The notes under the pieces: generated by a model | Told to the model about the DNA's origin: nothing | Seen by the model: the letters and a program-made list of their open reading frames with translations, nothing else | Databases searched by the model: none | Part shown: piece after piece, positions 5,419-59,300 of the stretch | How the letters are laid out: each line of letters starts with the position of its first letter | Numbering within the stretch: the stretch's first letter is position 1 | Origin: a virus | Lineage: Duplodnaviria > Heunggongvirae > Uroviricota > Caudoviricetes | IMG/VR virus record: IMGVR_UViG_2630968933_000007 | Location: 1-64,000 of that record | Length of the DNA: 64,000 nt | Strand: one strand, 5' to 3' | Made by a program: the position numbers and the translations under genes

Positions 5419-6135
5419 TCAGGCGGTCAGCTCTTTAAGCTTCTGAACTGCTTTATTCATTTCATCCATACAGTCGATGAATTCGTCCAGTTTAAGCTGC
5501 ATTTTTCCGGCGGCCTGAAGAATTTCAAGTTTTAAGGGCGCAAGTTTTTTGTTGAATTCATCATCTTCCTGGCGTTTTTTCTCCGCAATTTCGGCGGCTT
5601 TCAGCAATTCTTCAGCCTGTTTTCTGAGTATTTCTGGTGAAGGTGAAACTGCTTTGAGGTTATTCACTTCAGGTTCCTGTTGTTGCAGAATTAATTTGTT
5701 GCATTCTCTGCGTGAGCGTTTCATTGCAGATTCGCACTTCTTGCAATAAATGGCTCTCCCGTCACGCTTGCTGGCATCTGAATAAAAATCATTGACTGAT
5801 TTTGTCTGCCCGCATCTGGTACATAATTTTGATTGAAGGTCCTTAATGATTGTGACGTTTCCTTCCCGCTTGGGATATCCATATTTTTTGTGGCGTAAAA
5901 AGGTTACTCCGTTACCAGAACCTTCTTTTCTGACCTTAAATACAATGATGCTTTCCCGTTTATCGATAAAATCGATGAGCTGGTTTCTCTCCTTTCCTGA
6001 CAGTTCGGCAAATGTCTTAACTTTTTTAGTAACCTCAGTAAGGCGAACGCCGTCAGGCATTTTTTCAACGAAGTTTTTAATCTCTGCAAGCGGACGCCAT
6101 AATTTTTGCGGCAAAACTGAAGGCGTGGTCATCAA
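5419..6135 (-). CDS. Hypothetical protein with CxxC...CxxC zinc-ribbon and C-terminal coiled coil
   Basis: 238-aa ORF; motifs CTRCGQ...CKKCE. Confidence 0.55.
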   Translation of the reverse strand: MMTTPSVLPQKLWRPLAEIKNFVEKMPDGVRLTEVTKKVKTFAELSGKERNQLIDFIDKRESIIVFKVRKEGSGNGVTFLRHKKYGYPKREGNVTIIKDLQSKLCTRCGQTKSVNDFYSDASKRDGRAIYCKKCESAMKRSRRECNKLILQQQEPEVNNLKAVSPSPEILRKQAEELLKAAEIAEKKRQEDDEFNKKLAPLKLEILQAAGKMQLKLDEFIDCMDEMNKAVQKLKELTA

Positions 6136-7019: not shown

Positions 7020-7781
7020 TTAGGAATCAAGGTCAGGTAGCATGATTTTCTCAATCAACGTCAATGCCCTTTGGTCTCGTTCAGCAAAATATTTAGGAGC
7101 GTACTGAGGCAGCCACACTTCGTTGAAGTGTTGTTTGAAATCTGCAAGATATTCGTTTGGGTATAGACGTACCGGGAATGTCCGGCCATCTGGGTACTCA
7201 TGGTTATATGTTGGGAATGTCTTCGGCTCAACCCCCCGGTTGTCACGGAGCCATTGCGAGAAAACCCTACCCTCTGAAATATCAGGGACCATTTTTTCTG
7301 GCAGCGTATATCCGGCCTGTTCAAGTGGCGCAACCAAGTTAAACGTCAGTTCATTAAGCATAGAAAAGTGCGTATGAGGAACTCTGCCTCGGTTTGTCAT
7401 ATACCGCTTAAGGTGGATAGGGAGTTCGGCAGGCGCTCTTTCACCTGACATCCACTCACGCACCCATCTCGATACTTGCACTGCAAATTTTGGAGATAGC
7501 CACTGAGCTAAATTAATTGCGATGTCTGGATGAACCCAAGTCCCTTGATTCTCTGCTCTTCCGCCTTTAAATGATTGAATTAACTCCGATATGGGAATCC
7601 CCATATCGCGTGATAATTCATCAAAAAAATCTTGTGTTGTTTTTAGTCGTGTATAGTCAGCAAGTAGCTTCCCCGCAGACTTGCACATCGCGGTGGCATT
7701 GATGTATCCGTCTTTGGTGCGAAGATGGATGACTTCTCCATCAACTTCTCTAGCGATTAATGCAAGTTGAAACTGTGTCAT
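7020..7781 (-). CDS. KilA-N domain protein with C-terminal domain of unknown function, in the rexAB position downstream of cI
   Basis: 253-aa ORF starting 31 bp after cI stop, same strand; N-terminal ...GYINATAMCKSAGK... region resembles KilA-N. Confidence 0.75.
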   Translation of the reverse strand: MTQFQLALIAREVDGEVIHLRTKDGYINATAMCKSAGKLLADYTRLKTTQDFFDELSRDMGIPISELIQSFKGGRAENQGTWVHPDIAINLAQWLSPKFAVQVSRWVREWMSGERAPAELPIHLKRYMTNRGRVPHTHFSMLNELTFNLVAPLEQAGYTLPEKMVPDISEGRVFSQWLRDNRGVEPKTFPTYNHEYPDGRTFPVRLYPNEYLADFKQHFNEVWLPQYAPKYFAERDQRALTLIEKIMLPDLDS

Positions 7782-9425: not shown

Positions 9426-10004
9426 ATGCGTAATTACGCAACAATTTCACCTCAGTTCTGGTTAGGCGATACAGGGCGAAAACTAAGGAAGTCTGGTCCG
9501 GAATGTATGGTAGTGGCGTTGTATATGATGACCTCGCCTCATTCCAATATGCTGGGCCTTTATTACCTGCCTGTTTTGTACATTGCTCACGAAACCGGAC
9601 TTGCTCCTGAAGGGGCTTCTAAGGGGCTTCAAATGGCTTGCGAGGCTGGTTTTTGCAGCTATGACCATGATTCTGAGGTTGTATGGGTGCATGAAATGGC
9701 AGCATGGCAGGTTGGTGAATCGCTGAAACCTGGCGATAACCGTTGTGCTGGGGTAAGAAATGAATATTCCGCGTTGCTGGAAAATCCTTTTTTATCATCC
9801 TTTTATGATAGATATAAGGATGATTTCCACCTGGATGTCAGACGTGAATCATGTCGGAAAATTGAAGCCCCTTCAGAGCCCCTTCAGAGCCCCTTTCAAG
9901 CCAAGAACAGGAACAGGAACAGGAACAGGAAAGGGATAAAACCCTTCTGGTCCATGGCGAAAAAATCGCCACGGACCCACAGGGGGATTTTTGTCCTGTT
10001 CTGA
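9426..10004 (+). CDS. Replication initiator, putative origin-binding N-terminal part (ORF terminates after iteron array)
   Basis: 192-aa ORF in O-gene position; 3' end contains the tandem repeats and encodes (NR)n. Confidence 0.5.
   Translation: MRNYATISPQFWLGDTGRKLRKSGPECMVVALYMMTSPHSNMLGLYYLPVLYIAHETGLAPEGASKGLQMACEAGFCSYDHDSEVVWVHEMAAWQVGESLKPGDNRCAGVRNEYSALLENPFLSSFYDRYKDDFHLDVRRESCRKIEAPSEPLQSPFQAKNRNRNRNRKGIKPFWSMAKKSPRTHRGIFVLF
9866..9934. repeat. Putative ori iterons: 11-bp unit agccccttcag x3 then hexamer gaacag x4
   Basis: Tandem repeats read directly at 9866-9900 and 9905-9928, inside the replication gene as in lambda O. Confidence 0.6.
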
Positions 10005-10057: not shown

Positions 10058-10519
10058 GTGCAGCAGGTGCTGATCGTCGAACCGGAGCAACAACGCCAAC
10101 CGCAGCAGCCTGAAGCCGATTCCGCGATGAGCGGGAAGCCGATTGGGTTAACCCGGGCGATGCCGGGACCGTCTGCGGGACGAGTTGATTATCCTGACGT
10201 GTTCGAACGGGTCTGGCGTGAATATCCGCATCGGGCAGGGTCAAACCCGAAGAAATCCGCGTTCAATGCCTGGAGGGCCAGATTACGCGAAGGGGTGTCA
10301 CCGGATGTCGTGCTGGATGGCGTGAGGCGTTACGCAAGATACCTGGAGGCTACCGGGAAAGCGGGAACTGAATTTGTTCAGCAGGCATCGACGTTTTTTG
10401 GCCCGAACAGGAATTTCGAAAATCCGTGGTCGCTGCCGAAGGTTGGCGCAGTCAGCCTGCGTTGCGTGAATCACATTTCTGAACCGGACACCGAAATTCC
10501 GCCGGGTTTCAGGGGGTAA
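10058..10519 (+). CDS. DnaT-like primosomal/replisome-organiser domain protein (reading frame open upstream to 9866)
   Basis: C-terminus ...ISEPDTEIPPGFRG resembles E. coli DnaT C-terminus (…SEPDSQIPPGFRG); listed start is GTG; frame has no stop back to 9866. Confidence 0.6.
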   Translation: MQQVLIVEPEQQRQPQQPEADSAMSGKPIGLTRAMPGPSAGRVDYPDVFERVWREYPHRAGSNPKKSAFNAWRARLREGVSPDVVLDGVRRYARYLEATGKAGTEFVQQASTFFGPNRNFENPWSLPKVGAVSLRCVNHISEPDTEIPPGFRG

Positions 10520-12071: not shown

Positions 12072-12509
12072 GTGCTTATGACAAGAGCATTTACACCAGA
12101 AGAGCGGGAAAAAATTAAGGGGCTGATCGTGGAGTTCGTACGCCTTAACGGACGAGGCACGATTCGGCAGTTATCGGATGAAATTGGTGTCAGTCATGCG
12201 TCTGTCGGTCGTTTATGCATGGAGCTGGCCGCCAGTGGTGATGTTTACAATTCCGGTTACGGAGTATTCCCGTCTGAACAGGCTCGTAAGGACTGGCAAA
12301 ATGCCCGCAAAAAACTCTCAAGGGCAAAGTCGAAGAAACCGGTTGTCGTTGATCCAGACCTTATCCGGGCATTACCAGATGGGGAAATACGGCGCTACGA
12401 CAGACGCTACAACACAATTTGTCGCGAGTGCCGTAACAGCGAAACGATGCAGCGTGTGCTGGCATTCTGGCGAGGGAGTGCAGAGGGATTGATGTTCTCC
12501 CCGTCGTGA
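12072..12509 (+). CDS. Hypothetical phage protein (HTH-like N-terminus)
   Basis: 145-aa ORF. Confidence 0.5.
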   Translation: MLMTRAFTPEEREKIKGLIVEFVRLNGRGTIRQLSDEIGVSHASVGRLCMELAASGDVYNSGYGVFPSEQARKDWQNARKKLSRAKSKKPVVVDPDLIRALPDGEIRRYDRRYNTICRECRNSETMQRVLAFWRGSAEGLMFSPS

Positions 12510-12541: not shown

Positions 12542-13216
12542 TCATATAGAGGCTGAATCTGATCTTTTTTGTTCACGTCTGGCTTCCACCATTGCAGGCA
12601 GAGTGAAGGCGTAGACTAAAAACATTTCGGTAAAACTCAGGATCTGGCTTGCCTCAATTGGTGTGAAAACTTCATCTGTATGAACTGCTTTATTGGCATC
12701 AATTCGTACAATATGAGCCCATTCCTTCATCTGTTCAGTGATCAGGCCTTTTTTGTAAATCATCTGAATACGTTGCGACAGCGATTCTTTTCCTGCTTCA
12801 TCGCCGAGCAGTTTTTTCGTGGAGATATCGAGGACTCTGCGACAAAGAATAACCACTGTGTCGTACCGCCTCCTCTGTAAATCCTCTTTTGCCTCAACAA
12901 AAGTACGGTCTGCAACCGGGGGCGTATATTCTGGTGCGGTAATTTTTTTGACCACAGGATAGATCTTGCGGAAACGGTACTGGCTATTTCCTGAAATCAG
13001 AATATCGAGGTCTTTTTTCTGGCTTTCCGCCATGGGACCGTGATAGTGGTCTGATGGGATTTCAACAATAGCAACACCTCCTCGATGACAACTTCTGCAT
13101 ACAAAAGCGACGTTAAAAAAAGGTGTTTTTTCAATTTGTTTTTCGGCAAATGCCTCAATAACAGCTCGCTCTTTTAAACAGTGCGGGCATGTGATATCAA
13201 AGGAGACTAAACCCAT
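12542..13216 (-). CDS. Zinc-ribbon protein with C-terminal DUF4145-like domain (start taken at MGLVSFDITCPHC)
   Basis: CPHC...CRSCH zinc ribbon; C-terminal ...CRRVLD...WAHIVRIDANKAVHTDEV...ILSFTEMFLVYAF pattern recalled as DUF4145-like; opposite strand to flanking operon. Confidence 0.6.
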   Translation of the reverse strand: MGLVSFDITCPHCLKERAVIEAFAEKQIEKTPFFNVAFVCRSCHRGGVAIVEIPSDHYHGPMAESQKKDLDILISGNSQYRFRKIYPVVKKITAPEYTPPVADRTFVEAKEDLQRRRYDTVVILCRRVLDISTKKLLGDEAGKESLSQRIQMIYKKGLITEQMKEWAHIVRIDANKAVHTDEVFTPIEASQILSFTEMFLVYAFTLPAMVEARREQKRSDSASI

Positions 13217-13460
13217 GGATATTCCTCGCGAAATTAAAGAAATTAACGAAATCATTGAGGTTACTGATCGCCCCGAGTTTACCCTCATGCGTCGTTATGA
13301 AACAGGAACCGACGAACAAAAATACATCATGGTTGCAGCATTGGCTGTGATGGCGATAGAAAGGGAGCGAAGGGAAAAGGACGTAATGGTTATTCCTGAG
13401 AGAAATGATTCACCGGATTTGAGATGGCAGGAGCCGGAGTGGGATGTGGTAATCCGGTGA
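13215..13460 (+). CDS. Hypothetical small protein (uncertain; start codon overlaps divergent start of 12542..13216)
   Basis: SD aggag 9 nt upstream of ATG 13215; 81 aa. Confidence 0.3.
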   Translation: MDIPREIKEINEIIEVTDRPEFTLMRRYETGTDEQKYIMVAALAVMAIERERREKDVMVIPERNDSPDLRWQEPEWDVVIR

Positions 13461-13514
13461 TTGATATTTCTCTGGGGTAAAGCGCCGCCAGAATGACGGC
13501 GCGGTAGTGGAGAG

Positions 13515-13823
13515 TTAAACGAAGCGGATCTGGAGTTTTTTCCCTGTAGCACGGGCGAATTTTTTCAGTGTGGCAAATGATGGGCCGCTTGTACCTGATG
13601 CAAGATTGCTTTCCATTCTGGTTATCGCAGTCGCTTTTGTTCCCATACGTTCAGCAACTTCAGCCTGGGTTAAGCCAGCTTCTTTTCGTGCTGCCAGCAT
13701 TTCATCAAGTAGTGCGAATTCATCGGCGATGGCGTCGTATTCTGCTTTTACTGCGGGGTTAGACAACATTTTTTCTACCATATCATCGTGTGTCATGGTA
13801 GGTGGGGTACGTTTACCAGTCAT
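13515..13823 (-). CDS. HTH (XRE-type) antitoxin, HigA-like
   Basis: 102-aa ORF with HTH ...GLTQAEVAERMGTKATAITRME...; overlaps upstream toxin gene by 11 bp. Confidence 0.75.
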   Translation of the reverse strand: MTGKRTPPTMTHDDMVEKMLSNPAVKAEYDAIADEFALLDEMLAARKEAGLTQAEVAERMGTKATAITRMESNLASGTSGPSFATLKKFARATGKKLQIRFV

Positions 13824-14142
13824 GCTTAACCTCCTTCATTCTGGTTTCAGCTTTTCTAAGCTCGGCAGGTGGAGTTTTTTGCGTTTTCTTTACAAAGCTA
13901 TGCAACATAATGATTCGCTTTCCTTTTAGCGTGCAGTAAAAAACACGCCCTATGCCTTCCGAGCCCTTAAGGCGGATTTCAAACAAACCGTCGCCAAATG
14001 CCTCTGTATGCGGGGAACCAAGATTAGCTCCGTAAATACGCATTTTCTCCGTGTACCGAATGTACCGGGCTTGTAAGGTCTCAGGAAGAGAAAGGATCTC
14101 AGCTTCAACCTCGTCACTGTAGTATTCGATAATGTAGTTCAT
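13813..14142 (-). CDS. RelE/ParE-superfamily toxin, Gp49/HigB-like
   Basis: MNYIIEYY...GDGLFEIRLKG..GIGRVFYCTLKGKRIIMLHSFVKKTQKTP fits Gp49-like toxin pattern; toxin-first operon order. Confidence 0.75.
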   Translation of the reverse strand: MNYIIEYYSDEVEAEILSLPETLQARYIRYTEKMRIYGANLGSPHTEAFGDGLFEIRLKGSEGIGRVFYCTLKGKRIIMLHSFVKKTQKTPPAELRKAETRMKEVKHDW

Positions 14143-14463
14143 GAGAGTAAACATAACAAATTTGTTATATACATTCAAGGTATGTTGACGACAACACATA
14201 TCCGGGATTATATTCTTCGCACGCCAGCAAAATCTGGCGTCGGGATTAGGAACCCCGGATATTCAACCGCGACAGACACACGCCGCGAGCGTGTTTTTTA
14301 TTGTCGTATGCACACGCACATCTGAATTATGGTGGGGCGTATGGGGCAGCCGAAAGGCTGGCCGGTTGGTTGATCCGGTAGTTCCTAACCCTGTACGTCT
14401 CGCCACCCGATGATTAGGAACCTGACGGTGGTGATAGTTTAGAAACCACTCGAGGGCGTCATT

Positions 14464-15135
14464 ATGACAACTCAAGTTTCTGTTGAAACACTCTCCACGA
14501 TTACTTACAAGCAGATCCCCGTTATCACTACTGAACTTTTGGCGCACCTTTACGGCACAGAAGCTATTCGTATTCGCCAGAATCACCACGAAAACAAAGG
14601 TCGTTTCATTGAGGAAAAACACTTCTTCAAACTTGAAGGTGAAACTTTACGTGAGTTCAAGCACAGAGTAGCTTTTAACTACTCTGTGAAAATTGCCCGT
14701 AACGTTCGCTCCCTCATCCTATGGACAGAACGCGGCGCAGCCCGTCATGCAAAAATGCTCGAAACCGATCGGGCGTGGGAAGTGTTCGAAAAACTGGAAG
14801 ACTGCTATTTCAGCCAGGGAAAAACAACACAAACCGAACAGCAGTCGCAGATTCAGCCACAATTCACAGCCGAGGAAATCATCCTCCTTTGCTACATGCA
14901 ACTCTGGATGGAAAAAGCCCGGGACCTTAGCAAGCAGCTGTACCCCATAATGAAAGAGCTGAACTCCTCATACACGAACAAGCTGTATGACATTGCGTTT
15001 GAGACTATCTACATGGTGAAGAAGAACAGAGACGCGCTACTAAGGGAGGTAACACGTCTCGACATGTCAAGTTCCGTTATCCAGCGGGCCATGCCAATGC
15101 TGAAAAGCCTGCGGGCAAGACAATTTGAATTCTGA
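14464..15135 (+). CDS. Antirepressor-like protein (N-terminal ORF6N/Rha-like, C-terminal domain shared with the ant gene at 57722..58351)
   Basis: 223-aa ORF; last ~95 codons ~95% identical to C-terminus of 57722..58351 ORF. Confidence 0.6.
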   Translation: MTTQVSVETLSTITYKQIPVITTELLAHLYGTEAIRIRQNHHENKGRFIEEKHFFKLEGETLREFKHRVAFNYSVKIARNVRSLILWTERGAARHAKMLETDRAWEVFEKLEDCYFSQGKTTQTEQQSQIQPQFTAEEIILLCYMQLWMEKARDLSKQLYPIMKELNSSYTNKLYDIAFETIYMVKKNRDALLREVTRLDMSSSVIQRAMPMLKSLRARQFEF

Positions 15136-15189: not shown

Positions 15190-15600
15190 ATGAACCAGAC
15201 TATCTTCCTCCGAAGTAAGCAGCAGCAACAATTCGCCATTAACGCCATCCTTGCAACAACTCTCGATAAAGACAAACCCGTTACGATCCGCATCACCGAT
15301 TACAAGCGGAATCTCGATCAAAATGCCAAATTTCACGCGATGGTCGCTGATATCTCCCGACAGGTTCAGTGGTGCGGCAGATGGCTAAAACCAGAACAGT
15401 GGAAAGTTTTGTTAATCAGCGGTCATGCCGTGGCGACAAAACAGGAAGCTGATGTTTTGCCAGGTCTTGAAGGTGAATACGTCAATATCCGCGAAAGCAG
15501 TGCGCAAATGAGCGTGAAGCGTATGGCAAGCCTGATTGAGTACACAACTTCCTGGGCTGTGGATCAGGGTGTCAGATTTACCGACAGGAGGTATGAATGA
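15190..15600 (+). CDS. ninB: NinB (Orf-family recombination mediator)
   Basis: 136-aa ORF with ...SLDQN.K.....D.SRQV.W.GRWL... pattern matching lambda NinB. Confidence 0.8.
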
Positions 15601-18040: not shown

Positions 18041-18235
18041 TTGTCTGGCTGCCGGAGAATTTGTTAAAAATTGCATCGCGTGGTGAATCCCCCTCAGCGG
18101 CGGGGCATCTGGCAAAGTGTATGATCCAGCGAACATGCAAATTCAGTAGCCAGGCTGAATTTACCGGGAGGCACCTGGCACCATGCGACAGACAGAAATT
18201 AGGCTATACTTCAGCCCCTCTCCGGAGGGGCTTTT
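18041..18235 (+). ncRNA. Candidate small RNA unit 1 (promoter-like ttgtct-N17-ttaaaa to UCCG-loop terminator)
   Basis: No ORF; promoter-like hexamers 18041-18069; 8-bp stem agcccctc/gaggggct with tccg loop at 18213-18232 + T-run. Confidence 0.3.
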
Positions 18236-18426
18236 CTGTGCAGGATGTGTCACAGTTTCCTGAATTCTGAGTACTGTCCTGTTACTCAGGGTGCTATATT
18301 TTCTGACGTGATGAAAGTCTGCCGGAAGGCGGAACGTATCGGAAATGACCCAGTAGAGAAAACGTTGACTCAGATACCGGTGCTGAGTTACCGGGAAACC
18401 GGCATCACATGACCGCTATCCTTCCA

Positions 18427-18509: not shown

Positions 18510-18720
18510 TTGTCTGGCCAGCGGGAAGTTTGTTAAAAAAATATGGCATGGTGAATCCCCCTGTGCGGAGGGGCATATCAGCGACAGGTGTTTGGTCACA
18601 CCCCTTATCCTTTCTGGTGCGGGTTCAGGTGCTGATACTGAACTCACCGGGAGGCACCCTGCACCATGCATGAACGGTACATAGCGCTACTCTCCAGCCC
18701 CTCTCCGGAGGGGCTTTCTT
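18510..18720 (+). ncRNA. Candidate small RNA unit 2 (paralogue of unit 1)
   Basis: Same promoter architecture 18510-18538, conserved blocks (tggtgaatccccct, accgggaggcacc), same terminator hairpin 18696-18715. Confidence 0.3.
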
Positions 18721-18957
18721 GTTGGATAAAAAAAAGCCCGCGCCGGGAAGCGCGGGTGGCAAGGAATAAACAACAAAACGTGAAGTGATCAATTTTCAGC
18801 TGGCGAATAATACCTGATAGTAATCACTCTGCGCAACTGTATGGTCTTTTTCGTATTGCGGGCTGTAGTCATCCTCCTGTTTCTGAACCCTTGTCCATGA
18901 CTGACGTCAGCCCGCACCTTATCTTGATTGCATACACTATCCCTGCCGGGAGGAATA

Positions 18958-20931
18958 ATGGCATTTAAACACTATGACGTGGTCAGGGCATCATCGCCGT
19001 CAGACCTCGCAGGAAAACTGACGCAAAAACTGAAGGAAGGCTGGCAACCCTATGGTAGTCCGATTATCTCAAACGCGGGTTATGGTGCTGAATTTATCCA
19101 GGCTATAGTCGCTGAAGGGGATATGACCTCTCCGGTAGTTTCACCGGGGGGAGATGGTACCCGGACTGTTGTTGTTGAACCAGAATATTACTTTGTCATT
19201 GCGCTGGCCGGACAGTCAAACGGCATGGCGTATGGTGAAGGCCTGCCGCTGCCGGAGACATATGACCGTCCGGACCCGCGTATTAAACAGCTGGCGCGTC
19301 GCAGTACGGTGACACCGGGTGGTGCGGCCTGTGCATATAACGACATCATTCCGGCGGACCACTGCCTGCATGATGTGCAGGATTTGAGCCGTTTTTCTCA
19401 TCCGAAAGCCAGCGCAGAGCAGTATGGGTGTGTCGGACAGGGATTGCATATTGCCAAAAAGCTGTTGCCCTTTATGCCGGAAAATGCGGGTATTTTGTTA
19501 GTGCCGTGCTGTCGTGGTGGGTCTGCGTTTACAGCCGGTGCTGACGGAACGTTCAGTGAAAGTTCAGGAGCGTCGGATAAATCTGAACGATGGGGCGTTG
19601 ATAAGCCGTTGTATAAAGACCTGCTGACACGCACTCAGGCCGCGCTGAAGGCAAACCCCAAAAACATACTGCTTTGTGTTGTCTGGATGCAGGGCGAGTT
19701 TGATTTAAAACAGGGAGCGTACGCCAGTCAGCCCGCCATGTTTGATGCCATGGTGGAAAAATACCGTTCTGACCTGGCGGGAGTATCCGGTCAGTGCGCT
19801 GGTGCTTCTCCTTCTCTGGTGCCCTGGATTTGTGGTGACACGACGTACTACTGGAAGGAGACGTATTCAGCGCAATACGATGCCGTCTATGGCGCATACA
19901 AAACCAAAGCCGGTAAAAATATCTTCTTTGTGCCGTTTATGATGGATGACAATGGTCAGAAAGTCGGGACCAATGAACCGTCAGAAGACCCGGATATTCC
20001 GGCTATCGGGTATTATGGTTCCGGTGGACGAACGGATGCGAAGAGCTGGACAACATCCGATCGTAAAACCCACTTTGGTTCATGGGCGCGTCGCGGAATT
20101 ATTTCCGACCGTCTGGCAACAGCCATTCTTCTGCATGTGGGCAGAGTGGCAGATTTTGTTTCCGGGAAAGTGACAAAAGCCGCGGTTTCTTCAGGCGGAG
20201 GCGTATCGCAACCAGCACAGGAGAGTGGCGATACTCAGCCTGAATCCGTTGTCCCGACAAAGATACAGTCAGTGCTGGCTTATGATGCGAATGCGGAAAA
20301 TGCCGATCTGGCTTCGCAGGGCTGGACGCTGACAGATGTCAAAAACACGCTGGTCAGTGACAGTGGTTCAGGTAAAAAAGCCCTTCGTCTTGAAAAACCA
20401 GAAAATGGTCTTGCACAGAAAAAGACCTGGAAAGTATCGCACGCAATTGATGCCGGTAAGGGGAAGGAGCTGTTCGATAACGGCGGTGAAATCACGCTGC
20501 GCTTTAAAATCCCCGATGATGTATCTCTCAATGCTTCTGCAAATCAATATTCTGCGGGTATTTACTGGCGCGGTAGTGGATGGCCGGGAGCGGAATCAGA
20601 GGAGGGTTATATTGCGGCCTTCTATCTGCAGACTGATAAAACAAACATCAATGTGATGTATCATGCAAACACCACATCACAGCGGCTTGGTAGTTATGGT
20701 CCGTTCGATCACGACTGGCACACGCTGACTTTCCGCTTCCCGGGTGGTGGCTCGCTGAACGTCACGCCGGTGCTTGATAATGCAGCAGGAAAACCGTTTA
20801 CGCTGACCAGATGGACGAATGCAGCCTTTGAGGCCAACGCGCTGGCAATTACGGATATTACCGGAAATGCGGCAACTTACCCTGTGCTGATTGAAAGTCT
20901 TACTGTTGGTGTGAATGCCGTAGCAGCATAA
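18958..20931 (+). CDS. nanS: Prophage sialate O-acetylesterase NanS-p-like (DUF1737 N-terminus + SGNH hydrolase)
   Basis: N-terminal MAFKHYDVVRASSPSDLAGKL...; SGNH block ALAGQSNGMAYG; position downstream of Q as in Stx phages. Confidence 0.8.
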   Translation: MAFKHYDVVRASSPSDLAGKLTQKLKEGWQPYGSPIISNAGYGAEFIQAIVAEGDMTSPVVSPGGDGTRTVVVEPEYYFVIALAGQSNGMAYGEGLPLPETYDRPDPRIKQLARRSTVTPGGAACAYNDIIPADHCLHDVQDLSRFSHPKASAEQYGCVGQGLHIAKKLLPFMPENAGILLVPCCRGGSAFTAGADGTFSESSGASDKSERWGVDKPLYKDLLTRTQAALKANPKNILLCVVWMQGEFDLKQGAYASQPAMFDAMVEKYRSDLAGVSGQCAGASPSLVPWICGDTTYYWKETYSAQYDAVYGAYKTKAGKNIFFVPFMMDDNGQKVGTNEPSEDPDIPAIGYYGSGGRTDAKSWTTSDRKTHFGSWARRGIISDRLATAILLHVGRVADFVSGKVTKAAVSSGGGVSQPAQESGDTQPESVVPTKIQSVLAYDANAENADLASQGWTLTDVKNTLVSDSGSGKKALRLEKPENGLAQKKTWKVSHAIDAGKGKELFDNGGEITLRFKIPDDVSLNASANQYSAGIYWRGSGWPGAESEEGYIAAFYLQTDKTNINVMYHANTTSQRLGSYGPFDHDWHTLTFRFPGGGSLNVTPVLDNAAGKPFTLTRWTNAAFEANALAITDITGNAATYPVLIESLTVGVNAVAA

Positions 20932-24499: not shown

Positions 24500-26186
24500 A
24501 CCGCGATGTGATGAACCGTCAGAAATGACCGGGACCGAACAACGTCTGTTCATCATGACTAAACTGAGCAATCCCTGGTGGCGCCTCAATCATCTCTACA
24601 AAATACAGAACGAAAAAGGTGAACTGGTCACCTTCAGAATGCGACCGGCGCAACGTCAGTTGTTTCGTAACATGCATAATAAAAACATTATCCTGAAAGC
24701 GCGCCAGCTGGGATTTTCCACAGCCATTGATATTTATCTTCTCGACCAGGCATTATTCATTCCGCATCTCAAATGCGGGATTGTCGCTCAGGATAAACAG
24801 GCTGCCAGTGAAATTTTCCGCACCAAAATTGCTGTACCGTTTGATCATCTTCCTGACTGGCTGAGAGCCTCATTCACCATCGTTGAACGTCGTAGCGGAG
24901 CCAGCGGTGGCTATATCCTGTTTGGTCACGGCTCGAGTATCCAGGTGGCAACCTCATTCCGTTCAGGTACGGTGCAGCGCCTGCATATCTCAGAGCACGG
25001 CAAAATTTGCGCAAAATATCCGGCTAAGGCGAAAGAACTGCGAACCGGTACACTTAATGCCGTCTCTGATGAGTGCATTATCTTTGATGAATCCACTGCT
25101 GAAGGTGTGGGTGGCGATTTTTACGAGATGAGTAACCGGGCACAGGAAATCACTGCATCAGGGCTGGCGCTGACGCCACAGGATTATAAATTCCATTTTT
25201 ACGCCTGGTGGCAGGATCTCAAATACAGCGCCAGAGTGCCGGAAAGCGGACTTAAGCTGTCACGGGAAAAAACAGCGTATTTTTCTGCGGTTGAAAAAGC
25301 AATGAACATCACGCTTACCGATGAGCAGAAACACTGGTACATCTGCAAGGAAACTGAACAGCGTGAGGAAATGAAGCAGGAATTTCCCTCAACGCCACAG
25401 GAGGCGTTTCTGACGTCAGGACGACGGGTGTTCAGTGCGGAAAGCACGCTGCAGGCAGAGTCATTCTGTTCGCCACCGCTGATTGTTTATGACATTGAAC
25501 CGGTTACAGGAACGAAGACCAAAGCGCAGTCTCTGCGTGACGGGAATAAAGCCGAACAGCACCGGACGCTGATGAATTATCTGCTGGTCTGGGAGCTGCC
25601 GGATCCGGATGAAGAGTATGTATGCGGAGCGGATACCGCTGAGGGGCTGGAGCACGGAGACCGCTCATCGCTGGATATCATCAGATGCAGTAATGGTGAG
25701 CAGGTGGCTCACTGGTTTGGTCATCTCGATGCGGAGCTTTTCGCTCATCTCATTGCGCAGGTCTGCCGTATGTACAACAATGCGTTTGTGGGGCCGGAGC
25801 GTAACAATCACGGACATGCCGTTATCCTGAAACTCAGGGAACTCTATCCGACGCGTTATATCTACAACGAACAGCACCTTGACCAGGCATATGACGACGA
25901 TACGCCCCGTCTTGGCTGGCTGACAACCCGCCAGAGTAAACCGGTCCTGACAGAGGGAATGAAAACGCTGCTGAATAACGGCCTGTCGGGGATCCGCTGG
26001 TCGGGCACATTATCAGAAATGAACACCTACGTTTATGACGCGAAAGGCTCCATGAATGCACAGGAAGGCTGTTTTGATGATCAGCTTATGAGCTACATGA
26101 TTGCCCAGGAGATGCGCGCCAGAATGCCGGTGAGGGTAAAACAGAAAACGGATAAACGCAGAACCACACACTGGATGGCTCACTGA
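24480..26186 (+). CDS. Terminase large subunit
   Basis: 568-aa ORF with ATPase and nuclease-like regions; follows terS. Confidence 0.85.
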   Translation: MTFRKNEPRCDEPSEMTGTEQRLFIMTKLSNPWWRLNHLYKIQNEKGELVTFRMRPAQRQLFRNMHNKNIILKARQLGFSTAIDIYLLDQALFIPHLKCGIVAQDKQAASEIFRTKIAVPFDHLPDWLRASFTIVERRSGASGGYILFGHGSSIQVATSFRSGTVQRLHISEHGKICAKYPAKAKELRTGTLNAVSDECIIFDESTAEGVGGDFYEMSNRAQEITASGLALTPQDYKFHFYAWWQDLKYSARVPESGLKLSREKTAYFSAVEKAMNITLTDEQKHWYICKETEQREEMKQEFPSTPQEAFLTSGRRVFSAESTLQAESFCSPPLIVYDIEPVTGTKTKAQSLRDGNKAEQHRTLMNYLLVWELPDPDEEYVCGADTAEGLEHGDRSSLDIIRCSNGEQVAHWFGHLDAELFAHLIAQVCRMYNNAFVGPERNNHGHAVILKLRELYPTRYIYNEQHLDQAYDDDTPRLGWLTTRQSKPVLTEGMKTLLNNGLSGIRWSGTLSEMNTYVYDAKGSMNAQEGCFDDQLMSYMIAQEMRARMPVRVKQKTDKRRTTHWMAH

Positions 26187-28330
26187 TGAAAAATGAAACT
26201 AATACCATGGCGACGAAAAACGACAACGGAGCCACGCCGCGTTTTTCTCAGCGCCAGTTACAGGCGCTTTGTTCTGATATTGACAGTCAGCCTAAATGGC
26301 GCGATGCCGCAAACAAGGCCTGTGCGTATTACGATGGTGACCAGTTGCCACCGGAAGTTCTCCAGGTGTTGAAAGATCGCGGTCAGCCGATGACCATCCA
26401 TAACCTCATCGCGCCTACCGTTGATGGTGTTCTGGGTATGGAGGCCAAAACGCGGACTGATCTGTTGGTGATATCAGATGATCCTGATGATGAAACAGAA
26501 AAACTGGCTGAAGCTATTAATGCTGAATTTGCCGATGCTTGCCGCCTTGGAAATATGAATAAAGCCCGTTCTGATGCCTATGCGGAACAAATCAAAGCGG
26601 GGCTCAGCTGGGTGGAGGTCAGACGGAACAGCGATCCGTTCGGGCCTGAGTTTAAGGTGTCTACTGTCAGCCGGAATGAAGTGTTCTGGGACTGGCTCAG
26701 CCGGGAGGCTGATTTAAGTGACTGCCGCTGGCTGATGCGCCGCCGCTGGATGGATACCGATGAGGCAAAAGCCACATTTCCGGGAATGGCTCAGGTTATC
26801 GATTATGCCATTGATGACTGGCGTGGTTTTGTCGATACCACGGTTACTGAAGGCCAGCCCAGTCCGTTGATGAGTGCATGGGAAGAGTATCAGTCATGGG
26901 ATCGACAGCAGAACGAATGGCTTCAGCGTGAACGCCGTCGTGTGCTGCTTCAGGTGGTTTATTACCGTACATTCGAGCGTCTTCCGGTGATTGAACTCAG
27001 TAATGGACGGGTGGTGGCCTTTGATAAAAATAATCTGATGCATGCGGTGGCTGTGGCATCCGGGCGGGTGCAGGTGAGAGTCGGGCGGGTAAGTCGTATT
27101 CGTGAAGCCTGGTTTGTGGGACCGCACTTTATTGTGGATCGCCCCTGTAGTGCGCCGCAGGGGATGTTCCCGCTGGTTCCCTTCTGGGGATACCGGAAGG
27201 ATAAAACCGGGGAGCCTTACGGGCTGATTTCCCGGGCCATTCCGGCACAGGATGAGGTGAATTTTCGTCGTATAAAACTGACGTGGTTGCTTCAGGCCAA
27301 ACGCGTGATTATGGACGAGGATGCCACCCAGTTGTCAGACAACGAGCTGATGGAGCAGATCGAGCGTCCGGATGGCATTATTAAACTGAATCCGGCCCGA
27401 AAAAATCAGAAAAGCGTTGCTGATGTTTTCCGGGTTGAACAGGATTTTCAGGTTGCCAGCCAGCAGTTTCAGGTCATGCAGGAGTCGGAAAAACTTATCC
27501 AGGACACGATGGGGGTTTATTCCGCATTTCTCGGGCAGGATTCAAATGCATCGTCCGGTGTGGCGATCAGCAACCTGGTGGAGCAGGGAGCCACAACCCT
27601 TGCCGAAATCAACGATAACTACCAGTTTGCCTGCCAGCAGGTGGGAAGGCTGTTGCTCGCTTATCTTCTTGATGACCTGAAAAAGCGGCGCAATCATGCG
27701 GTGGTGATTAATCGCGATGATCGTCAGCGTCGCCAGACCATTGTCCTCAATGCTGAAGGTGATAATGGTGAACTGACCAATGATATTTCAAGGTTAAATA
27801 CACATATTGCGCTGGCTCCTGTTCAGCAGACACCGGCGTTTAAGGCACAGCTTGCACAGAGAATGTCAGAGGTTATTCAGGGGCTGCCGCCTCAGGTGCA
27901 GGCTGTTGTGCTCGATCTGTGGGTTAATCTTCTGGATGTGCCGCAGAAACAGGAATTTGTCGAACGTATTCGTGCGGCGCTGGGGACGCCAAAATCACCG
28001 GATGAGATGACTCCGGAAGAGCAGGAAGCGGCAGCACAACAGCAGGCGCTGGAGCAACAGCAGGCAGAACTTCAGATGCGCGAAATGACAGGCCGGGTGG
28101 CTAAACTGGAAGCAGAAGCTGCCAGGGCACGCGCGGCTGCGCAACGGGATAATGCTGGCGCACAACGGGATGTCGCCGCGGCACAGGGACAGCGTTATGT
28201 GGATGCGCTTAACCAGGCACATACGGCAGAAATCATTACCGGCATACAGAATATGGAACAGGAGCAGGAAGTTCTTCAGCAACAGATGCTGCATACACTA
28301 CAACAGCGGATGCATGAAATGCCGCTCTGA
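26186..28330 (+). CDS. Portal protein (714 aa)
   Basis: Large ORF coupled to terL stop (ATGA), coiled-coil Gln/Ala-rich C-terminus. Confidence 0.8.
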   Translation: MKNETNTMATKNDNGATPRFSQRQLQALCSDIDSQPKWRDAANKACAYYDGDQLPPEVLQVLKDRGQPMTIHNLIAPTVDGVLGMEAKTRTDLLVISDDPDDETEKLAEAINAEFADACRLGNMNKARSDAYAEQIKAGLSWVEVRRNSDPFGPEFKVSTVSRNEVFWDWLSREADLSDCRWLMRRRWMDTDEAKATFPGMAQVIDYAIDDWRGFVDTTVTEGQPSPLMSAWEEYQSWDRQQNEWLQRERRRVLLQVVYYRTFERLPVIELSNGRVVAFDKNNLMHAVAVASGRVQVRVGRVSRIREAWFVGPHFIVDRPCSAPQGMFPLVPFWGYRKDKTGEPYGLISRAIPAQDEVNFRRIKLTWLLQAKRVIMDEDATQLSDNELMEQIERPDGIIKLNPARKNQKSVADVFRVEQDFQVASQQFQVMQESEKLIQDTMGVYSAFLGQDSNASSGVAISNLVEQGATTLAEINDNYQFACQQVGRLLLAYLLDDLKKRRNHAVVINRDDRQRRQTIVLNAEGDNGELTNDISRLNTHIALAPVQQTPAFKAQLAQRMSEVIQGLPPQVQAVVLDLWVNLLDVPQKQEFVERIRAALGTPKSPDEMTPEEQEAAAQQQALEQQQAELQMREMTGRVAKLEAEAARARAAAQRDNAGAQRDVAAAQGQRYVDALNQAHTAEIITGIQNMEQEQEVLQQQMLHTLQQRMHEMPL

Positions 28331-58351: not shown

Positions 58352-58600
58352 GATGACCTCCTTTGGCTTTTTTCGAGAAATGCCACCACAAGATGTGGTG
58401 CCGGGAGGCTCGAAACGGCCCAAAAGATACCGCGGACTTATTCCCCTTGCGGGTGTTGTATTCGTCGCCCTCCCGACATTGATCGGGGATGTGACCGCAC
58501 ACTGTGCTATCACTGAATAACAGGCATAAAAAATCCAACACTGACGGGGTTGGTTTAATCCGCTTTTGGGAGGTTTTCGAGGCCTCGGCGCGGAGTATAG

Positions 58601-58885: not shown

Positions 58886-59300
58886 GATGACCTCCTTATT
58901 TGTTTAGTTTATAACCGCCAGTTAGTAGCTGGCGGTCGGGTGTCAACTGAGCCAAATAAGAAGCTCTGGGCATATTCCCCTTGCGGGTGTTGTATTACGC
59001 CTCTCCACCCGACCTTTGTACGGATGTAACTATGCCAAATTGCAGGCATAAAAAAGCCGCAAAGCTATCGGGTGCGGAGACCGCTTATTTGTTCAGTGCG
59101 ATCAGTATGCGATAGCTCTGGCGGATTTGTCAAATCGTGCAGTAACATCCTTTTCTTCCTTGCCATTTCTCAATGATGACAAAGGGTGGATTCGGATTGG
59201 TATTGGGACAAAAGTGAGACACACAAAGCTTTGCATCGGCTTACAAAGCTTTGCATGTTTTTCAATGTTGGGACGTGTGAGCGCAGAAATGACGGGCTAT

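Follow-up and report, generated by a model that had tools for sequence, protein, structure and literature searches.

Three described systems come closest to the genes discussed here. RAZR (ring-activated zinc-finger RNase, the new name of PD-T7-4) from Escherichia coli UMB1727 (PDB 9y9c; Nature 2026, PMC13017515) combines an N-terminal Cys4 zinc ribbon, for which that paper cites the RPB9-type class, with a C-terminal DUF4145/HEPN domain in which R146 and H154 are essential. RAZR alone is non-toxic, but it polymerizes around phage portal or Erf-like rings and becomes active, cleaving single-stranded RNA, and its zinc-ribbon domain is both the most variable part and the determinant of specificity (PMC13017515). 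HigB toxins of the GP49 type are RNases encoded first in operons that are repressed by HigA with HigB as the corepressor, as in HigBA2 of Acinetobacter baumannii (PMC5906591). Finally, antisense control by C4/IsrK RNAs is established for c4 of P1/P7 (PMC4825925) and for IsrK of Gifsy-1 (PMC12197685). Here, we compare with these systems a region of the IMG/VR virus record IMGVR_UViG_2630968933_000007, of which we analyzed positions 1 to 64,000 (64,000 nucleotides [nt], called the window below). The reading that we favor, and hold to be fairly probable, is that the region from 12542 to 15135 contains two independent cargo cassettes, namely, a RAZR-like RNase gene and a HigBA-type toxin-antitoxin (TA) pair, and that the copies of a short repeat, GATTAGGAACC, next to the latter lie in an IsrK/C4-antirepressor module. 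All of these components are of already known kinds, the RAZR-like protein being a distant clade of the kind described in 2026 and IsrK/C4 being already known.

The window is an E. coli lambdoid prophage with a P22-type portal. Its cargo region is 99.5% identical to a prophage of E. coli G1/2 and approximately 95% identical to Escherichia phage PhiR5_2, while the Shiga toxin (Stx) phages 75/02 and POCJ13 of Shigella show approximately 91.5% identity over the first 79% of a 2.4-kb query. The two cassettes and the gene between them are as follows (aa, amino acids; HTH, helix-turn-helix; MFE, minimum free energy).

12542-13216, minus strand: candidate RAZR-like RNase, 224 aa, starting MGLVSFDITCPHC; by homology, a candidate for single-gene abortive infection
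13215-13460, plus strand: orf81, 81 aa (phrog_8371, E 6.8e-56; RefSeq hypothetical protein WP_001624507), conserved, dividing the two cargo slots
13482-13502, minus strand: GC-rich hairpin after the antitoxin stop codon, MFE -19.1 kcal/mol, z -4.3, with a UUU tail only
13515-13823, minus strand: HigA-like XRE-HTH antitoxin, 102 aa (Pfam HTH_3, E 3.7e-11; phrog_1373)
13813-14142, minus strand: HigB-like toxin, 109 aa, first gene of the pair (Pfam Gp49, E 4.6e-27, 94.3 bits)
14150-14178, minus strand: candidate TA promoter from our own scan, TTGAAT-N17-TATGTT with a TGn extended -10
14153-14168, no strand: candidate HigA operator, the perfect 16-bp palindrome ATAACAAATTTGTTAT, overlapping the -10

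A sequence-only reading of this region had proposed an N-terminal zinc ribbon and a DUF4145/HEPN-like C-terminal region for the product of 12542-13216, and both assignments hold. The product matches Pfam DUF4145 (E 3.9e-9). Aligned with 37 homologues of identities down to 37%, it shows no variation at C10, C13, C40, and C43 or at R171, D173, N175, and H179, the last four of which make up an RxDxNx3H motif (R171-x7-H179). From the N terminus, the Cys4 ribbon is followed by a variable insert (approximately residues 54 to 84), a linker, and the DUF4145/HEPN domain. The AlphaFold2 (AF2) model has a predicted local distance difference test (pLDDT) score of 90.1 overall and places four beta strands in the zinc-ribbon region, and the N-terminal part of the family profile weakly matches RPB9-type ribbons (E 0.24). 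Column entropy is 1.7 to 2.6 bits in the N-terminal sensor half versus 0.9 bits in the HEPN half. The family comprises 207 clusters at an E value of 1e-30 or better among 1.84 billion cluster representatives, nearly all of them 200 to 235 aa long and matching end to end. The RAZR-like gene itself was found in 37 of 5,426 complete E. coli genomes.

For comparison with RAZR, its 219-aa sequence was rebuilt from two overlapping database entries, and the result agrees with every residue number in PMC13017515. In both cases a single gene, of 224 aa here and 219 aa in RAZR, encodes a Cys4 ribbon, a P-rich linker, and a C-terminal DUF4145/HEPN domain with R-x7-H. R171/H179 of the window protein align on R146/H154 of RAZR in three independent alignments, and both proteins vary most in the sensor half. 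BLASTP against the rebuilt RAZR gave 24% identity over 141 aa in the HEPN half, a profile-profile alignment with hhalign gave a probability of 78.5% (E 1.7e-5), and 17 of the 37 relatives match the PADLOC PD-T7-4 model, the best with an E value of 2.8e-7. The zinc ribbons, however, cannot be aligned, their spacing being C-x2-C-x26-C-x2-C here versus x29 in RAZR. The window protein also has an extra segment of approximately 30 residues (54-84) between ribbon and linker, and its carrier prophage itself makes a P22-like portal and RecT. A search of solved structures with the single RNase sequence gave no match, the family profile being needed to reach 9y9c, which was not among the matches listed by either fold search. 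By its fold, architecture, and catalytic motif, we read the 224-aa protein as RAZR-like and as part of a separate clade.

From the homology to RAZR, we infer ring-templated activation and an anti-phage role for this protein. It would be made in the lysogen, where it would be harmless alone, and its variable zinc-ribbon end would sense a ring-forming protein of a superinfecting phage. Oligomerization would then let the HEPN domains (R171, H179) cut RNA non-specifically, and the infection would be aborted. Gifsy-1 HepS, one of the other prophage-borne HEPN sensors of phage structural proteins (PDB 9OIK, a complex with the lambda J tail tip), belongs to another HEPN family and has another sensor, its structural resemblance to the window protein being confined to the HEPN core. 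As for RAZR itself, the entries retrieved by a word-indexed search with a fragment of it were all partial or short at the N terminus. Many true RAZR-family entries (e.g., P0085, P0086, P0092, and P0175) are 146 to 168 aa long and have their start at the second CxxC knuckle or beyond it, which points either to widespread miscalling of start codons or to a shorter form missing half of the zinc ribbon.

The three minus-strand open reading frames had been described as one accessory island between the replication genes and ninB. Their positions, between the DnaC-like, DUF1627, and DUF977 genes and ninB, were given correctly, and the accessory, variable character of the region was borne out by cargo that differs among related antirepressor loci. 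They are not contiguous, however, because orf81 on the plus strand, overlooked at the time, sits among them at 13215-13460. A CCATGG palindrome (13214-13219) holds the overlapping ATG codons of orf81 and the RAZR-like gene, with the Shine-Dalgarno sequence of each inside the other gene. Rightward early transcription would pass in antisense through the RNase gene, over its full length, and through the TA pair. In related phages, orf81 occurs both with and without the RAZR-like gene; as a general partner or antidote of the RNase it was rejected, since distant RNase homologues lack it and it is also found without the RNase.

Two lines of evidence show that the cassettes on either side of orf81 assort independently. 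First, RNase homologues of approximately 50% identity are lone opposite-strand genes, located at the junction of the lysis cassette and terminase in Pantoea and Citrobacter or next to int/xis in Enterobacter, and neither a TA pair nor another conserved neighbor was found near them at these three prophage positions. Judged by this gene context, a RAZR-like RNase would have no need of a TA pair. Second, we gathered 80 loci via the neighboring antirepressor gene, 66 of which had sufficient upstream sequence. Cargo was absent from 46 of the 66, and the full set was present in 8. Three had this TA pair without the RNase, 2 more retained just the toxin or just the antitoxin, and in 2 the RNase was accompanied by another type of TA pair. 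Between orf81 and the antirepressor module, at least four kinds of cassette occupy the slot among related loci.

Window: Gp49/XRE pair
Locus L026, 1579-2192: classical HigB/HigA
Loci L057, 1470-2217, and L025, 1159-2222: RelE-like toxin with a NadS-like antitoxin
Locus L030: pair of 95 aa and 122 aa (alternative cargo at 393-1062 and 1504-2152)

The slot between DUF977 and orf81 is variable as well, with unrelated genes in related phages. Because RNase homologues stand alone elsewhere and slot occupancy varies, the region is two slots with two independent opposite-strand cassettes, one on either side of the conserved orf81, and not a single three-gene functional island.

The second cassette (13515-14142) had been predicted to be a toxin-first pair of a Gp49/RelE-fold toxin and an XRE-HTH antitoxin whose genes overlap by 11 nt, and the gene layout and the matches of the products agree with this. 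By sequence, the best solved relatives of toxin and antitoxin are the HigB chain (E 7e-5) and the HigA chain, respectively, of the same Streptococcus pneumoniae complex, 6AF3. The AF2 model of the toxin (pLDDT 86) matched pneumococcal HigB in Foldseek with a template modeling (TM) score of 0.74 (6AF4, E 2e-6), and further matches included Mycobacterium tuberculosis HigB1 (7NBU), RelE, and Vibrio cholerae HigB2, with 2KHE and 1WMI also in the list. Across Proteobacteria, more than 2,300 relatives of the toxin were found, 65 to 79% identical and typically 109 to 111 aa long, a shared length that fixes the toxin start at 14142. The start codon (14140-14142) is ATG in the window and ATA in PhiR5_2 (L001, approximately 5841-5843), L012, and L023, where annotators call a shorter toxin.

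With its toxin-first order, Gp49/RelE fold, XRE-HTH antitoxin, gene overlap, and promoter palindrome, the pair resembles GP49-type HigBA systems (6AF3/6AF4; PMC5906591; 7NBU). It differs from them in its approximately 20% identity to the solved toxins, in its place in a swap-in slot of a lambdoid prophage, and in its probably leaderless mRNA, and from the M. tuberculosis toxin-antitoxin-chaperone system in having no chaperone. It is thus an ordinary member of the GP49-type HigBA group. The toxin would belong to the Gp49/HigB RNases, either ribosome-dependent or general, with a HigA-like HTH protein as its antitoxin, and together they may function as an addiction or abortive-infection module.

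The spacing and hexamers of the candidate TA promoter are kept in divergent TA loci. The toxin ATG lies 7 nt past the -10 and has no Shine-Dalgarno sequence, and the mRNA is therefore probably leaderless. The half-sites of the palindrome overlapping this -10, ATAAC-N6-GTTAT, are conserved in all TA-bearing loci, including at 73% toxin identity and in L002 (phage 75/02) and L024. In these last two, where the TA pair does not stand beside IsrK/C4, homology with the window stops near 14202, and the shared 60 nt contain the palindrome. By this conservation, the palindrome at 14153-14168 is likelier to be the TA operator than the GATTAGGAACC copies, and the pair is probably autorepressed at ATAACAAATTTGTTAT. 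The TA and IsrK promoters stand back to back at their -35 regions.

The GATTAGGAACC copies had been put forward as the plausible autoregulatory operator in the sequence-only reading. We found them instead to be part of the module on the other strand, the elements of which are listed below.

14185-14214, plus strand: promoter-like site of the IsrK/C4/ant module, TTGACG-N18-TATATT, 10/12 match
14208-14261, plus strand: c4-a1b1, Rfam 44.2 bits, just below the gathering threshold of 46.7
14221-14299, plus strand: IsrK-like small RNA, the a1b1 leader of the C4 module, Rfam isrK 68.9 bits (gathering 50)
14244-14254, plus strand: b1, GATTAGGAACC, in the loop of the second IsrK hairpin of the predicted fold
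14263-14268, plus strand: a1, TCAACC
14278-14300, plus strand: intrinsic terminator of the IsrK-like RNA, from a terminator scan
14325-14410, plus strand: C4-type antisense RNA, Rfam C4 67.5 bits (gathering 45), MFE -43.5, z -4.0
14366-14374, plus strand: a', C4 loop TTGGTTGAT, unpaired in the predicted fold
14381-14388, plus strand: b', GTTCCTAA, single-stranded in the C4 fold; the inverted copy of the earlier reading
14412-14422, plus strand: b2, GATTAGGAACC, just 3' of C4 on the ant leader
14444-14448, plus strand: a2, AACCA, just 5' of the ant Shine-Dalgarno sequence GAGGG (14452-14456)
14464-15135, plus strand: antirepressor (Pfam ORF6N, E 8.5e-20; P22_AR_C, E 2.4e-7; phrog_377 anti-repressor Ant, E 1e-83)

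The copies themselves are real: two are exact and direct, at 14244 and 14412, and one is inverted at 14381-14391, 10/11 complementary with its register shifted by one base. Their count is not unusual genome-wide, with 23 of 100 shuffles giving at least 2 matches at 1 mismatch or fewer; what places them beyond chance is their co-variation in related loci, not their number. They fall in or, for b2, directly beside the plus-strand Rfam isrK and C4 matches, and they co-vary as RNA pairing elements. Among 37 distinct related loci, we counted seven b' and six a' variants, the partners of which are exactly complementary and stand at fixed distances, b1 approximately 79 nt upstream and b2 22 nt downstream for b', and a1 approximately 64 nt upstream and a2 approximately 50 nt downstream for a'. 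The mean b match length was 7.1 and 7.2 nt with the elements of the own locus versus 4.7 and 4.1 nt with those of other classes. In the targets b precedes a, and in C4 a' precedes b', the arrangement needed for antiparallel pairing. The plainest case is PhiR5_2, in which GATTAGCACC / GTGCTAA replaces the window version in all three copies; the c4-a1b1 model also reaches 46.9 bits there. These results come from explicit element matching across loci, which was used because whole-length C4-flank duplex prediction gave uninformative long duplexes. In a MAFFT alignment, the b elements, which differ by one base in length, were set in different registers in the partners.

The majority of motif-bearing loci have no TA pair, and antitoxins that are 98 to 99% identical stand beside three different motif variants (L012, L019, and L023). 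L002 and L024, with no IsrK/C4 adjacent, retain the other palindrome at the TA pair, and a motif search found no GATTAGGAACC in L002. Because of the co-variation, the three variants tolerated by one antitoxin, and the TA-free loci, we take the copies to be RNA recognition elements and not a TA operator: on these comparisons of related loci, they are b1, b', and b2, the predicted RNA-RNA pairing elements of the antirepressor switch, and belong to neither cassette. The IsrK/C4 antisense module would gate translation of the antirepressor.

This arrangement parallels immI of P1/P7 (c4-icd-ant) and isrK-orf45-anrP of Gifsy-1, with a promoter, an a1b1/IsrK leader with its terminator, a C4-like RNA, a2b2, and an antirepressor, and with loop-to-loop complementarity setting the specificity classes. 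It differs in that the window antirepressor is of the ORF6N/P22_AR_C type and in that a2 is of another specificity class than the a' of the same module. No icd/orf45-like frame ending at the ant ATGA was found in the window by eye. The a2 region (14442-14449), GAAACCA, is of the type that pairs with a' TTGGTTTC of E. coli G1/2, and a1 and a' TTGGTTGAT of the window do match each other. By its mixed elements, the C4 module of the window looks like a fine-scale recombinant. A tRNA-like reading of 14340-14400 was excluded, as a tRNA search across the window found no tRNA genes.

Several observations weigh against the reading of two independent cassettes, one of them RAZR-like, beside an antirepressor switch. 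Most concern the 224-aa protein. Its match to the PADLOC PD-T7-4 model is 15.5 bits (E 2e-3) and covers profile positions 64 to 158 of 211 (45%), and the family profile reaches the RAZR chain of 9y9c with an E value of 0.16, aligned across linker and HEPN domain; at library scale, this profile does not extend as far as RAZR. The catalytic loop (172-179) is the sole part of the AF2 model with low confidence (pLDDT below 50). With zinc ribbons that cannot be aligned and an additional insert, ring-templated activation is an extrapolation. A crude scan found no sigma-70-like promoter upstream of the gene on the minus strand (13200-13560), so that its expression in the lysogen is presumed. In the toxin of close relatives, the ATA start suggests TA decay or toxin inactivation in some lineages. 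In the antirepressor module, a2 of the window pairs with a' over 5 nt only versus 6 to 8 nt in the other 36 loci, which might weaken antirepressor control.

The missing promoter also bears on the alternative that survives best, which we regard as possible, though well behind the reading of two independent cassettes. The RNase gene would be promoterless here and read through from the autoregulated TA promoter, so that TA would set its dose while the proteins acted separately. Besides the lack of a sigma-70-like site, all 10 of the 10 related RNase-carrying loci have some minus-strand TA cassette upstream, and the hairpin that follows the antitoxin gene, with a tail of only UUU, was not called by the terminator scan. 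On the other hand, the gap between the two genes measures 298 nt and contains this hairpin, which is stable (z -4.3) and is either a weak terminator or a transcript stabilizer. Moreover, distant RNase homologues are expressed in other contexts without a TA pair, the promoter scan was crude, and the 10 loci are closely related.

That the DUF4145 protein has no defense function, being either a phage-serving nucleic acid-binding or regulatory protein or an inert remnant, appears unlikely. The label of phrog_1305, "DNA binding protein," would fit such a role, as would the weak PD-T7-4 score and the rarity of the gene in E. coli (37/5,426). The PHROG label, however, does not derive from a test. The strict conservation of Cys4 and RxDxNx3H in 37 diverse homologues, the size of the family, the moron-like opposite-strand position at several prophage hot spots, and the contrast between a variable sensor half and a conserved catalytic half all speak against it. 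Since conservation, placement, and sensor variability of this kind are signatures of an active, conflict-driven enzyme, the reading as a RAZR-like RNase is preferred over a non-defense role.

The earlier model, in which all three genes form one co-functional, lysogen-expressed exclusion island with the HTH protein autoregulating through three GATTAGGAACC operators, is very improbable: the genes do share one orientation and occur together in 8 near-identical loci, and the copies exist, but these lie within plus-strand isrK and C4 matches, change together with a1, a', and a2 in TA-free loci, and take three forms beside an identical antitoxin; the TA pair keeps another palindrome in L002/L024, which have no IsrK/C4 next to it, and the RNase occurs alone elsewhere.

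The surroundings are those of a lambdoid prophage. The cargo region is flanked by DUF977 (12072-12509, plus strand) and ninB (15190-15600, plus strand), and the prophage further encodes RecT (561-1346), a RecE-like exonuclease, a KilA-N protein, a LexA-type repressor followed by Cro and CII (per the G1/2 annotation), a DnaC-like loader, and DUF1627, with P22-type portal (26186-28330) and capsid genes further along. In E. coli G1/2, RefSeq annotates the three matching coding sequences as "DUF4145 domain-containing protein," "helix-turn-helix domain-containing protein," and "type II toxin-antitoxin system RelE/ParE family toxin." The KilA-N domain gene (7020-7781, minus strand) is directly downstream of the repressor gene, and a SASA-family, NanS-p-like esterase gene (18928-20931, plus strand) occupies the place where Stx phages carry one. 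The O-like replication gene is split into reading frames at 9426-10004 and 10058-10519 and bears the annotation "frameshifted" in E. coli G1/2. Short tandem repeats, AGCCCCTTCAG x2.7 (9866-9895) and GAACAG x4.5 (9905-9931), lie directly upstream of the break and may represent origin iterons or a site of slippage. Rfam STnc100 and sRNA-Xcc1 each have two copies, at 18048-18241 and 18517-18726 on the plus strand and at 58392-58477 and 58926-59014 on the minus strand, all above the gathering score. An sRNA-Xcc1 copy also lies upstream of the antirepressor in Shigella phage 75/02 (L002, 7797-7880).

RAZR was characterized in 2026 from two closely related proteins (PMC13017515). The divergent RAZR-like clade of 207 clusters is carried as prophage cargo, and standard defense finders would probably miss it. 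A broader proposal, which we advance only tentatively, is that the 224-aa protein represents a separate prophage-borne branch whose different ribbon and insert would read other phage assemblies, that the carrier avoids triggering its own RNase, and that the slots flanking orf81 are a general hot spot for defense cargo in Stx-type phages. The carrier would need such avoidance at induction because the phage makes its own P22-type portal and RecT. One candidate is a sensor specificity that excludes its own portal; another is silencing by the antisense early rightward transcript through the RNase gene and orf81. If the RNase senses rings, a carrier with its own portal ring raises a direct question on self/non-self discrimination by ring-sensing immunity. 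For the neighboring module, a tempting misannotation is removed, as the repeats beside the TA pair are RNA pairing elements of the antirepressor switch. The many mix-and-match C4 specificity classes in E. coli prophages bear on cross-induction and heteroimmunity of co-resident Stx-type phages.

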